64,000 nt of DNA from the NCBI RefSeq assembly GCF_036507355.1, contig NZ_AP027877.1. One strand, given 5' to 3'. The notes beneath the pieces are model-generated. The model did no database searches. It saw nothing but the letters and a program-made list of their open reading frames with translations, and was not told where the DNA came from. A program made the position numbers and the translations under genes. Of this stretch, positions 1 through 38,775 are shown piece after piece; within the stretch, counting starts at the first letter, position 1; the number at the start of each line of letters is the position of its first letter. Source of the stretch: Escherichia coli. Its GTDB lineage: Bacteria > Pseudomonadota > Gammaproteobacteria > Enterobacterales > Enterobacteriaceae.

Positions 1-400
1 GTGAGAACAGATCAACAACCACGGCAAGATACAGCCAGCCTTCGTGGGTCCTGATGTAGGTTATGTCCGTTACCCAACGCTTATCCGGAGCATCCGGATT
101 GAACTGTCGCTGGAGCCTGTTGGGCGACACGATACTGGCCTCGCCTTTACGTGCCCGCGGGCTCCGGTATCCGACCTGAGCCTTTATCCCGACACGTTTC
201 ATCAGTCGCCAGACTCTGTTCACTCCGCACTGTTGCCCGCTGTCCCGCAGATCCAGATGGATTTTGCGATAACCATAGACGCATCCCGATTCCAGCCAGA
301 ACTGTTTAATCTGCCCTGTCAGCCTCAGGTCTGCCTGATGGCGTTGTGAATGCGGCTGCTGAAGCCAGGCGTAAAAACCACTGGGATGAACATCCAGCAC
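1..400 (-). CDS. IS3-family transposase OrfB (DDE/rve), 3' part outside window
   Basis: Position-equivalent to OrfB of copy B (36072-36884) by coordinate mapping; runs off the window edge. Confidence 0.65.
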   Translation of the reverse strand, partial: MLDVHPSGFYAWLQQPHSQRHQADLRLTGQIKQFWLESGCVYGYRKIHLDLRDSGQQCGVNRVWRLMKRVGIKAQVGYRSPRARKGEASIVSPNRLQRQFNPDAPDKRWVTDITYIRTHEGWLYLAVVVDLFS

Positions 401-456
401 CCGACAGAGCAGGCGAACAGGCCAGCAACAGGTGTTGTCACGGATAAAGGCGTACC

Positions 457-741
457 TCAGTCGGACAGCTTTGCGAAGTACGCCGCGGCTTTTTTTAATA
501 TGTCCCGTTCGTCGGTAACCCGCTTCAGCTCTTTCTGGAGACGGCGGATCTCGGCCTGAGCATCTGACTGTTCTTTATTAGCGGAAGAATCCGGACCGTA
601 CTTCTTTATCCAGGCGTAAAGGCTGTGGGTGGTGATATCGAGACGTGTTGCAACGCTGGCAACAGAATAACCGCGATCAACAACCTGTTTGACTGCTTCA
701 ATTTTAAACTCTTCGGGATAACGCTTACCGCTCATGGGCAC
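457..741 (-). CDS. IS3-family transposase OrfA (HTH)
   Basis: 94-aa ORF identical to 35731-36015; T7 run at 490-496 is the reverse complement of the A7 slippery site. Confidence 0.85.
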   Translation of the reverse strand: MPMSGKRYPEEFKIEAVKQVVDRGYSVASVATRLDITTHSLYAWIKKYGPDSSANKEQSDAQAEIRRLQKELKRVTDERDILKKAAAYFAKLSD

Positions 742-795
742 CTCTCTTTAAGCCATCTTAAATGACTCTGAGGTGTCTGTTAAACCCGTGGCGAT

Positions 796-3114
<2,319 letters not shown>

Positions 3115-34828: not shown

Positions 34829-35042
34829 CGCGCACCTCGTGGCTGATTATGGACGGCGTTATTGGCAAAGTGGAACAAGACTCACTCCCGGGTCAGCAAA
34901 CTCGAAAAATTGACGCTCCCATTATTTGTGCTTTCGTTTTTTTCTATCCGCCAATAAACCCGTTTTTTTGTTGCTATTTAGCGCCTTTGTCTTATTGACT
35001 TACTGGTAGGCTTTGCTACCAGAAATTATCCAGGAGATGAAA

Positions 35043-35357
35043 ATGTCAGCGATACAGGGGATTGAAGGGGTTATCAGCCAGTTACAGGCTACGGCGATGA
35101 GTGCGCGTGCGCAGGAATCACTGCCGCAACCGACCATTAGTTTTGCCGGGCAGCTGCACGCCGCGCTCGATCGCATAAGCGATACACAAACAGCCGCCCG
35201 CACGCAGGCAGAAAAATTCACTCTCGGTGAACCCGGCGTGGCGTTAAACGATGTGATGACCGATATGCAAAAAGCCTCAGTTTCTATGCAAATGGGGATT
35301 CAGGTGCGTAATAAGCTGGTGGCGGCGTATCAGGAAGTGATGAGCATGCAGGTGTAG
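35043..35357 (+). CDS. fliE: Flagellar hook-basal body protein FliE
   Basis: 104 aa [15 protein letters not shown]...; divergent from fliF. Confidence 0.92.
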
Positions 35358-35730
35358 GTTTTGTAACCTGTTGTTGATTACATCCGATCTCACCGCGTGG
35401 GGCATGGATGGGGCAAACTCACTCATTATCTGGTTTAAAATGGATACCTGATCCTGAACGTTTTCTGCCATCCACGATCCGTATACACGATAAACCCTCT
35501 GATTATCAGAGTGTCTCATTTGACACATCACCACGTCGGATGTTGTTACGACCACAGACGCAACAGTAACCTCTGGATAATTTAATCTTTGTTGATGTTT
35601 TTATTCATATTCCGGGCTATGGATATGAGCGATTTTTGATAGTGGTAATTTTATTGTGTTTTAGAATGCGCCCTGAATCGCCACGGGTTTAACAGACACC
35701 TCAGAGTCATTTAAGATGGCTTAAAGAGAG

Positions 35731-36015
35731 GTGCCCATGAGCGGTAAGCGTTATCCCGAAGAGTTTAAAATTGAAGCAGTCAAACAGGTTGTTGATCGCG
35801 GTTATTCTGTTGCCAGCGTTGCAACACGTCTCGATATCACCACCCACAGCCTTTACGCCTGGATAAAGAAGTACGGTCCGGATTCTTCCGCTAATAAAGA
35901 ACAGTCAGATGCTCAGGCCGAGATCCGCCGTCTCCAGAAAGAGCTGAAGCGGGTTACCGACGAACGGGACATATTAAAAAAAGCCGCGGCGTACTTCGCA
36001 AAGCTGTCCGACTGA
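35731..36015 (+). CDS. IS3-family transposase OrfA
   Basis: 94 aa with HTH; A7 slippery run at 35976-35982 near the 3' end for -1 frameshifting into OrfB. Confidence 0.88.
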   Translation: MPMSGKRYPEEFKIEAVKQVVDRGYSVASVATRLDITTHSLYAWIKKYGPDSSANKEQSDAQAEIRRLQKELKRVTDERDILKKAAAYFAKLSD

Positions 36016-36071
36016 GGTACGCCTTTATCCGTGACAACACCTGTTGCTGGCCTGTTCGCCTGCTCTGTCGG

Positions 36072-36884
36072 GTGCTGGATGTTCATCCCAGTGGTTTTTA
36101 CGCCTGGCTTCAGCAGCCGCATTCACAACGCCATCAGGCAGACCTGAGGCTGACAGGGCAGATTAAACAGTTCTGGCTGGAATCGGGATGCGTCTATGGT
36201 TATCGCAAAATCCATCTGGATCTGCGGGACAGCGGGCAACAGTGCGGAGTGAACAGAGTCTGGCGACTGATGAAACGTGTCGGGATAAAGGCTCAGGTCG
36301 GATACCGGAGCCCGCGGGCACGTAAAGGCGAGGCCAGTATCGTGTCGCCCAACAGGCTCCAGCGACAGTTCAATCCGGATGCTCCGGATAAGCGTTGGGT
36401 AACGGACATAACCTACATCAGGACCCACGAAGGCTGGCTGTATCTTGCCGTGGTTGTTGATCTGTTCTCACGCAAAATTATCGGCTGGTCCATGCAATCC
36501 CGGATGACAAAGGACATTGTCCTGAACGCACTGCTGATGGCTGTATGGCGCCGTAATCCCCAAAAACAGGTGCTGGTTCATTCGGATCAGGGCAGTCAGT
36601 ACACAAGCCATGAGTGGCAGTCGTTCCTGAAATCACACGGCCTGGATGGCAGCATGAGCCGTCGCGGTAACTGCCATGATAATGCGGTTGCAGAAAGCTT
36701 TTTCCAGTTGTTGAAACGCGAACGGATAAAGAAAAAGATCTACGGAACGCGGGAAGAAGCCCGCAGCGATATTTTTGATTACATCGAAATGTTTTATAAC
36801 AGTAAGCGTCGGCATGGTTCCAGCGATCAGATGTCACCGACAGAATATGAAAACCAGTATTATCAACGGCTCGGAAGTGTCTAG
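36072..36884 (+). CDS. IS3-family transposase OrfB (DDE/rve integrase domain)
   Basis: 270-aa ORF; frame stays open upstream of the first ATG, consistent with an OrfAB fusion. Confidence 0.88.
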   Translation: MLDVHPSGFYAWLQQPHSQRHQADLRLTGQIKQFWLESGCVYGYRKIHLDLRDSGQQCGVNRVWRLMKRVGIKAQVGYRSPRARKGEASIVSPNRLQRQFNPDAPDKRWVTDITYIRTHEGWLYLAVVVDLFSRKIIGWSMQSRMTKDIVLNALLMAVWRRNPQKQVLVHSDQGSQYTSHEWQSFLKSHGLDGSMSRRGNCHDNAVAESFFQLLKRERIKKKIYGTREEARSDIFDYIEMFYNSKRRHGSSDQMSPTEYENQYYQRLGSV

Positions 36885-37086
36885 ATTATCCGTGGCGATT
36901 CATACTTTTTATAGAATGCAATCCTATTAAAGAGGCATTTTTAATGCCATGGACTTTGACAGACATTACCTATGGAATATCGCAGAGAAAATATATTGTT
37001 ACGAATCCCGATGATTATGATAAATATTCTTACATGGTTAAAAGGATAGTAATAGATGGTCATAATTAAATAATTTATTTATGTGC

Positions 37087-38152
37087 TGAATTTACAATCC
37101 AAGTGCAACAAAAAAAGAAGTACTCATCAACTAGAATATAATTTTGTTTCCACACAAAAACCACTTCCAAATGATGAGTACTTCCTACCGACATCTTACA
37201 ATAAACGAGCGAGAAAAGATAATGATTTTACTCGCACAGGGCAAAAAACAAGCAGAAATTGCCAAAGCACTGGGACGTAGCTCCAGCACCATTTCTCGCG
37301 AGCTGAAACGACACGCTCTAGAAAGCTACAGTGCAACGAACGCACAAAACAGCTATTTGAAGCATCGTCAAAATAGCAAAGCACAGCGCAAATTAGAGCA
37401 GCCTGAATATTTCAATTTGGTGCAAGAAAAGTTTCTGACAGAAAACTGGTCGCCCGAACAAATCAGCGCACGATTAAAATTGGAAAAATCTGAATTATCC
37501 ATTAGTTATTCAACCATTTATCGTGGTATTTATTCAGGGTTGTTTGATATAGGCGAACGCAAAGCCAGTCGCAAACTGCGCCACAAAGGCAAAACACGGC
37601 ATACAAAAAATCATCATGAAAAACGTGGCAAAATTCAGATATCCAACCATTTGAACGACCGTCCCATTTCGGCGCAAAATCGCAGTCGCTTTGGACATTG
37701 GGAAGCCGATACCGTACTGGGTAAAGCGGGTGGAGCTTGTTTGCTGACGCTGACGGAACGCAAAAGTCGTTTTGAGTTGGTGAAGAAAATTCCTGCCAAA
37801 AAAGCCGAAGCAGTCCAAAAAGCCATGATTGAATTGCTGGATTCACATATATTGCGGTCAATTACGCCAGACCGTGGTAAAGAATTTGCCCAACATCGTT
37901 TGGTAACAGAAGCACTGGGTGTAGAATTTTACTTCCCCGAGCCGCATCAACCGTGGACACGGGGAACGAATGAAAATACAAATGGGTTACTTCGTGAATA
38001 CTTTCCGAAGCACCAAGACATCAATCAGTGGAGCGAAGTTGATATTCAACAGGTGATCAATAAACTGAATTTACGACCACGTAAATGTTTAGGTTGGAAA
38101 ACACCTTATGAAGTTTACTTCAAAAAATCGTTGCACTTGGTTTGACAATTCA
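37087..38152 (+). mobile_element. IS30-family insertion sequence (~1.07 kb, AT-rich; ISApl1-like by size and organisation)
   Basis: Single transposase ORF; imperfect ~23-bp inverted repeats TGAATTTACAATCCAAGTGCAAC / GTTGCACTTGGTTTGACAATTCA; right repeat overlaps the tnp stop. Confidence 0.7.
37222..38145 (+). CDS. IS30-family DDE transposase
   Basis: HTH N-terminus, conserved GHWEADTV and TRGTNENTNGLLR motifs; 307 codons from ATG 37222 (track ORF from TTG 37144). Confidence 0.8.
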   Translation: MILLAQGKKQAEIAKALGRSSSTISRELKRHALESYSATNAQNSYLKHRQNSKAQRKLEQPEYFNLVQEKFLTENWSPEQISARLKLEKSELSISYSTIYRGIYSGLFDIGERKASRKLRHKGKTRHTKNHHEKRGKIQISNHLNDRPISAQNRSRFGHWEADTVLGKAGGACLLTLTERKSRFELVKKIPAKKAEAVQKAMIELLDSHILRSITPDRGKEFAQHRLVTEALGVEFYFPEPHQPWTRGTNENTNGLLREYFPKHQDINQWSEVDIQQVINKLNLRPRKCLGWKTPYEVYFKKSLHLV

Positions 38153-38295
38153 AGGTAATTAATTAGGCGTAATTGTGTCACTGGAATAGAGGTTTCTTGT
38201 GGCGCATGTAGAAGTGGCGTCTATGGACAAGGCGTTTCCTGCTGGTGATAAATAAAGGCGCAGCACGTCGAATGCAAGAATGTGCTGCGTCTGGC

Positions 38296-38775
38296 TCATG
38301 GCAATTCATTATTTTCGCATAGCGTCAATGATAAAAATCGACTGTGTGGATCAAATCGATAATCAGCAAACGGTTCGCAATCAACGAATCCATGTTTCAA
38401 ATAAAGTTGATGGCAGGCCGTAAATCCAGCCTGTGTACCCGTTTCTAAGCTCAGGCGATGAAGGCATCTGTCCTGGGCGACCTGCAAAATGTGGCGTAAA
38501 ATCAGACTGGCGACACCACGACGTAAATAATTTGGCGCGGTACGCATTGATTTTAGCTCGCCATGTTTATCATCCAGCAACTTCAGCGCACCAATTCCTG
38601 CGAGTTGTTCGCCTTCCCATACTGACCAGAATGTCACTGTCGGGTTACGTAATTTTTGCACATCTAAAGCATGACTGCTTTCGGGGGGAGACTGCTGCAG
38701 CATGTCGGAAATATGGTAAGCCACTAATGCTTGCACTGCTGGATGGGTGAGATCATCTGTTTTAATCGTGAACAT
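38296..38775 (-). CDS. yedL: GNAT-family N-acetyltransferase
   Basis: 159 aa. Confidence 0.85.
   Translation of the reverse strand: MFTIKTDDLTHPAVQALVAYHISDMLQQSPPESSHALDVQKLRNPTVTFWSVWEGEQLAGIGALKLLDDKHGELKSMRTAPNYLRRGVASLILRHILQVAQDRCLHRLSLETGTQAGFTACHQLYLKHGFVDCEPFADYRFDPHSRFLSLTLCENNELP

Follow-up and report, generated by a model that had tools for sequence, protein, structure and literature searches.

Chromosomal insertion of a complete, presumably active solo ISApl1 between yedL and an LRR gene remnant in Escherichia coli

The insertion sequence ISApl1 moved the colistin-resistance gene mcr-1 onto plasmids and is closely associated with that gene in Enterobacteriaceae. Its inverted repeats are 27 bp long with six mismatches, its insertions produce a 2-bp duplication in an AT-rich target, and serial isolates have been found to accumulate solo copies on mcr-1-free chromosomes (PMC5404521). 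ISApl1 and IS30 both transpose by copy-out-paste-in, in the course of which the element ends are joined across a spacer of 2 bp and give rise to a junction promoter (PMC5821093, PMC10916398, PMC6349718), situated in the circular transposition intermediate (PMC5821093, legend to Fig. 8). Transposase-dependent circle formation and transposition have been demonstrated experimentally for elements identical to the one described here (PMC10916398, PMC6349718).

The locus considered here lies in a 64,000-nucleotide stretch of Escherichia coli DNA, which was analysed as a whole and is referred to below as the window. The region at 36903-38295, bounded on one side by an IS3-family element and on the other by yedL, whose minus-strand stop codon is at 38296, had been predicted from its sequence to contain an AT-rich IS30-family element with the size and layout of ISApl1. 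Our analysis indicates, with a probability of about 97%, that the element is a complete, presumably active solo ISApl1 (IS30 family), inserted in the E. coli chromosome where yedL and an LRR gene remnant converge and an AT-rich spacer separates their 3' ends. Its components are as follows.

37085..38154, plus strand: ISApl1, complete, 1070 bp, with bounds set by comparison with the empty site of E. coli G4/9
37085..37111, plus strand: left inverted repeat (IRL), 27 bp, from the alignment with IRR, with 6 mismatches in 27
38128..38154, plus strand: right inverted repeat (IRR), 27 bp, from the alignment with IRL, with TTGACA at 38142-38147
37083..37084, no strand: target-site duplication GT, left copy, from the single GT at the G4/9 site against GT on both sides in the window
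38155..38156, no strand: target-site duplication GT, right copy, from the same G4/9 comparison

The identity of the element was judged against RefSeq-annotated copies of ISApl1 and published descriptors, rather than against ISfinder or the Actinobacillus pleuropneumoniae type sequence. By the usual ISfinder criterion, copies of the same IS share at least 95% nucleotide identity. Across its full length of 1070 bp, the window element is 100% identical to the ISApl1 copy that adjoins pap2/mcr-1.1 on the Klebsiella plasmid pKP2509-MCR and to several further plasmid copies annotated in RefSeq as 'IS30-like element ISApl1'; the second copy on pKP2509-MCR differs from it by one base. A megablast search returned 449 matching plasmid records, 443 of them at 99% identity or more, and nearly all of the matches listed carry the annotation 'IS30-like element ISApl1 family transposase', none of the element's matches being annotated as IS30 itself. 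Among complete E. coli genomes, ISApl1 was detected by megablast in 234 of 5426, at 928 places (634 chromosomal and 294 plasmid). The traits described for ISApl1 (PMC5404521) are all present in the window, namely 27-bp IRL and IRR that mismatch at six positions, an AT-rich target and the duplication of 2 bp, as are those of the IS30 family in general: a single ORF, terminal inverted repeats in the range of ~20-30 bp and a short (2-3 bp) target duplication. The guess that the element is ISApl1-like is thus confirmed, both by complete identity to annotated copies and by the published hallmarks.

It might be objected that members of the IS30 family resemble one another, being about 1.0-1.2 kb long, with one ORF between terminal inverted repeats and with short duplications, and that a match to the NCBIfam family model resolves the family level only, so that a different element common in enterobacteria, IS30 or one of its relatives, could resemble ISApl1 only in size and layout. 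Such an assignment did not occur, and the full-length nucleotide identity to annotated ISApl1 copies, together with an inverted repeat length, mismatch count and catalytic residue positions that equal the published ISApl1 values (PMC5404521, PMC10916398), makes this explanation extremely improbable; the element is ISApl1.

The exact limits of the element follow from a comparison with an empty site in E. coli G4/9 (NZ_CP060073.1, 1837565-1842720). The uninterrupted G4/9 sequence reads ...ATTTATTTAT-GT-AATTAATTAGG..., with one GT, whereas the window reads ...TTTAT-GT-(1070 bp)-GT-AATTAATT..., with GT on both sides and with the G4/9 flanks ATTTATTTAT on the left and AATTAATTAGG on the right, which places the bounds at 37085-38154. 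A length of ~1066 bp and imperfect inverted repeats of ~23 bp had been proposed; a repeat search does recover an inverted repeat of 23 nt (37087-37109 and 38130-38152, 87% complementary), but the true ends lie 2 bp outside this pair on each side, so that the element, although real, measures 1070 bp and its full repeats measure 27 bp. The same termini, GCTGAATTTA...ACAATTCAAG, also bound two independent plasmid copies with unrelated flanks. The 2-bp target duplication, proposed as a check in the original prediction, is present as GT at 37083-84 and 38155-56. The immediate flanks of G4/9 and the window are identical base for base where compared, and this base-by-base comparison reveals no loss of target sequence at the insertion. 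The 40 bp around the target have a GC content of 15% and a central G-containing dinucleotide, in agreement with the bias reported in PMC5404521.

With a 3.6-kb query and with a 200-bp junction query, the same insertion was found in 0 of 5426 complete E. coli genomes. The fact that ISApl1 occupies this site in no other complete genome, and that multi-copy IS elements commonly cause misassembly, could be taken to mean that the assembler misplaced a repeated IS. The junctions, however, bear the signature of real transposition, with precise termini, intact flanks, a 2-bp duplication and an AT-rich target, and a target duplication is not a product of a misjoin; an assembly artefact can hardly explain the insertion.

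With the 3.6-kb query, G4/9 matches the window at 100% over the IS3-family element, the right flank and yedL, and lacks the ISApl1 insert. The match is also 100% across the junction between the right end of the IS3-family element and the LRR remnant, and then through yedL into yedK. Among the matches listed, this IS3/LRR junction is present in no complete genome besides G4/9. Directly to the left of the IS3-family element, G4/9 has shiA-amn where the window has fliE; since shiA-amn replaces fliE there, the whole segment from yeeJ to fliE is absent at this junction in G4/9.

The association of ISApl1 with mcr-1 raises the question of whether the copy is an arm of a chromosomal Tn6330 or a single-ended mcr-1 unit, either of which would make the locus itself a carrier of colistin resistance. 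The linkage between ISApl1 and mcr-1 in Enterobacteriaceae is tight, mcr-1.1/pap2 on pKP2509-MCR has an identical copy at its flank, and chromosomal integrations of Tn6330 have been described (PMC5821093). A Tn6330 or mcr-1 unit is recognized by adjacent mcr-1-pap2 and, normally, a second ISApl1. A search for mcr-1 and for further ISApl1 copies, which had been suggested for the rest of the genome and its plasmids, covered the 64-kb window and found neither: blastn with the 2.6-kb mcr-1/pap2 cargo and tblastn with MCR-1 returned no match, and there is no second ISApl1 copy in the window. Moreover, on either side the element passes directly into the sequence of the native uninterrupted site, and the 2-bp duplication is present. 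Both observations speak strongly against a resistance unit at this locus, which we regard as most unlikely.

The solo ISApl1 of the window instead fits the pattern of solo copies that accumulate on chromosomes. The donor was most probably an ISApl1/mcr-1-bearing plasmid in the same cell, carrying either Tn6330 or a free ISApl1. G4/9 is an isolate from a healthy gut, and the window is identical to it at this locus, including the rare IS3/LRR junction. The insertion may be the marker of an E. coli lineage of commensal type with a present or past mcr-1/ISApl1 plasmid, in which the active IS would now be spreading chromosomally, a reading to which we give about even odds. A chromosomal ISApl1 is, in any case, a useful flag for screening the remaining genome and plasmids for mcr-1 and for more copies of the element.

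The coding capacity of the element and its leader are summarized by two features.

37171..38145, plus strand: transposase, 324 aa from ATG 37171 (RefSeq model WP_012478345.1)
37117..37184, plus strand: leader hairpin with a perfect 13-bp stem, from a repeat search and RNA folding

The IS30 family assignment is borne out by the NCBIfam model NF033563 (transpos_IS30), which matches the transposase over profile positions 1-267 of 267 with 309.1 bits against a cut-off of 80. In IS30-family transposases, 33 residues separate the second aspartate of the catalytic triad from the glutamate. The window protein has an N-terminal HTH and a DDE (rve) core, the latter detected with Pfam, and contains D163 (in EADT), D217 (in PDRG) and E251 (in NENT), the latter two being separated by 33 residues; these residue numbers follow the 307-aa form, which is the frame used in the literature for the ISApl1 transposase. 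Mutation of these D/D/E residues abolished circle formation (PMC10916398). The single ORF of 307 codons from ATG 37222 that had been predicted does exist, but the start is most likely the upstream ATG at 37171, giving 324 aa, with the ORF ending at 38145 in both cases. This start is favoured because the Pfam HTH_38 domain is complete only in the 324-aa form (model positions 1-44 of 44, E 2.7e-16), being truncated in the 307-aa form (model positions 15-44, E 5.8e-9), and because the RefSeq CDS on identical copies, of 975 bp or 324 aa, corresponds to ATG 37171. By eye, no obvious Shine-Dalgarno sequence lies just upstream of 37171.

The leader hairpin has a predicted folding energy of -22.4 kcal/mol (z = -8.0), and none of 200 shuffled sequences was equally stable. 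The AUGAUG of the 324-aa frame falls within its 3' arm, and a TATAAT is present at 37137-37142, between the two arms. In IS10 and IS50, the transposase start codon is masked in read-through transcripts that enter from outside and is not masked in the element's own transcript. By analogy, the hairpin of ISApl1 could block the translation of read-through transcripts and leave the element's own transcript unmasked; as it covers the first start codon, it might also switch between the 324-aa and the shortened 307-aa transposase according to the promoter from which the transcript originates.

As far as can be judged from its sequence, the window copy is presumably active. Joined end to end with 2 bp between them (IRR-NN-IRL), the two inverted repeats read TTGACA-17 nt-TACAAT, which fits the junction promoter of PMC5821093. 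By the route established in the ISApl1 and IS30 literature, the DDE transposase would bind the 27-bp inverted repeats and join both ends across the 2-bp spacer, and the element would be copied out as a circle. The abutted ends of the circle would then form a strong promoter that boosts transposase synthesis, and the circle would be pasted into an AT-rich target, of which 2 bp would be duplicated.

The surroundings of ISApl1 comprise three features.

35674..36903, plus strand: IS3-family element, 1230 bp, with a two-frame transposase
36904..37069, plus strand: 3' remnant, ~166 bp, of an LRR (yedN/espR3-like) gene, from a partial LRR pseudogene annotation in G4/9 and an alignment with the terminal part of the intact LRR gene in strain WEC
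38296..38775, minus strand: yedL (GNAT acetyltransferase), intact

ISApl1 begins 15 bp past the stop of the LRR remnant, 181 bp from the end of the IS3-family element (36903), and its right end lies 141 bp from the yedL stop. Since the insertion is in the spacer between converging gene ends, it interrupts no gene, and its local effect is for that reason probably neutral. The TTGACA of IRR, which points outward, was considered as a possible source of antisense transcription of yedL; no acceptable -10 was seen by eye in the right flank at 16-18 nt, and none emerged from a consensus scan. Just past the yedL stop, on the minus strand, 38259-38290 hold a GC-rich inverted repeat (GGCGCAGCAC ... GTGCTGCGTC) followed on the same strand by TTTATTTAT. 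This repeat, which the consensus scan did not list, looks like a terminator of yedL left intact by the insertion of ISApl1.

The element had been described as visibly AT-rich and, on that basis, as foreign. Its GC content of 41.7% is indeed below that of the window (48.9%), but the most AT-rich stretch is the gap between the two IS elements (36904-37084), occupied by the LRR gene remnant, where GC falls to 27.6%. AT-richness alone is accordingly only a partial guide to origin, the lowest value belonging to a resident sequence. A foreign, AT-rich origin of the element is nevertheless plausible, as plasmid records of Actinobacillus, Glaesserella and Pasteurella also contain sequence matching it; of the non-enterobacterial matches, the two listed (Glaesserella, Haemophilus) are both partial. 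These matches and the lower GC fit the published Pasteurellaceae origin of ISApl1.

The neighbouring IS3-family element is not flanked by a direct repeat, since CCC adjoins its left end and TAC its right end. Many enterobacterial plasmids carry near-identical copies (99.9%), which RefSeq and PLSDB name only 'IS3 family transposase'. Going by its size, it may be an ISEhe3-like (IS407-group) element. Strain WEC, in which the order is fliE, integrase remnant, intact LRR gene and yedL, served as the reference for the arrangement. The match of 34900-35675 with WEC runs across fliE and the integrase remnant and stops 31 bp short of the LRR gene; 36903-37081 match the last ~167 bp of that gene, and the sequence from 38155 onward matches the remainder. 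At the position of the IS3-family element, the window lacks ~982 bp that in WEC make up the 5' part of the LRR/espR3/yedN-like gene, which suggests an IS-associated adjacent deletion. The idea that ISApl1 and the IS3-family copy together replace yedN and intG consequently needs revision: the IS3-family element does coincide with the loss of the yedN-like sequence, but ISApl1 is a clean insertion, and an intG-like integrase pseudogene remnant is kept between fliE and the IS3-family element, at approximately 35382-35522 of the window, going by the alignment with the remnant annotated in WEC. The IS3-family element recurs at the beginning of the window (1-799) as a second, inverted copy of 100% identity, which is cut by the window edge and abuts yeeJ. 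The inverted copies bracket ~35 kb that include msrPQ, zinT, mtfA and fliF/fliE, and the two could support inversion.

The element itself, the way it transposes and its tendency to leave solo copies scattered on chromosomes are all already documented, and the sole new aspect is the insertion site, at which ISApl1 is absent from the 5426 complete E. coli genomes. With IS30, the founder of the family, from E. coli, the window element has in common the match to NF033563, the DD(33)E spacing and the 2-bp duplication; IS30 and ISApl1 likewise share a junction promoter in a circular or dimeric intermediate (PMC5821093 and established knowledge). It differs from IS30 in being ISApl1 at 100% identity and in its lower GC, as expected of a Pasteurellaceae origin. 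Tn6330 (ISApl1-mcr-1-pap2-ISApl1) is built with the same IS, one of the two copies that flank the cargo on pKP2509-MCR being identical to that of the window; whereas Tn6330 carries mcr-1/pap2 and a second ISApl1, the window copy is a solo IS without either. From ISApl1, the element first described in Actinobacillus pleuropneumoniae, which flanks Tn6330 and mobilises mcr-1, it does not differ in any respect but its insertion site.
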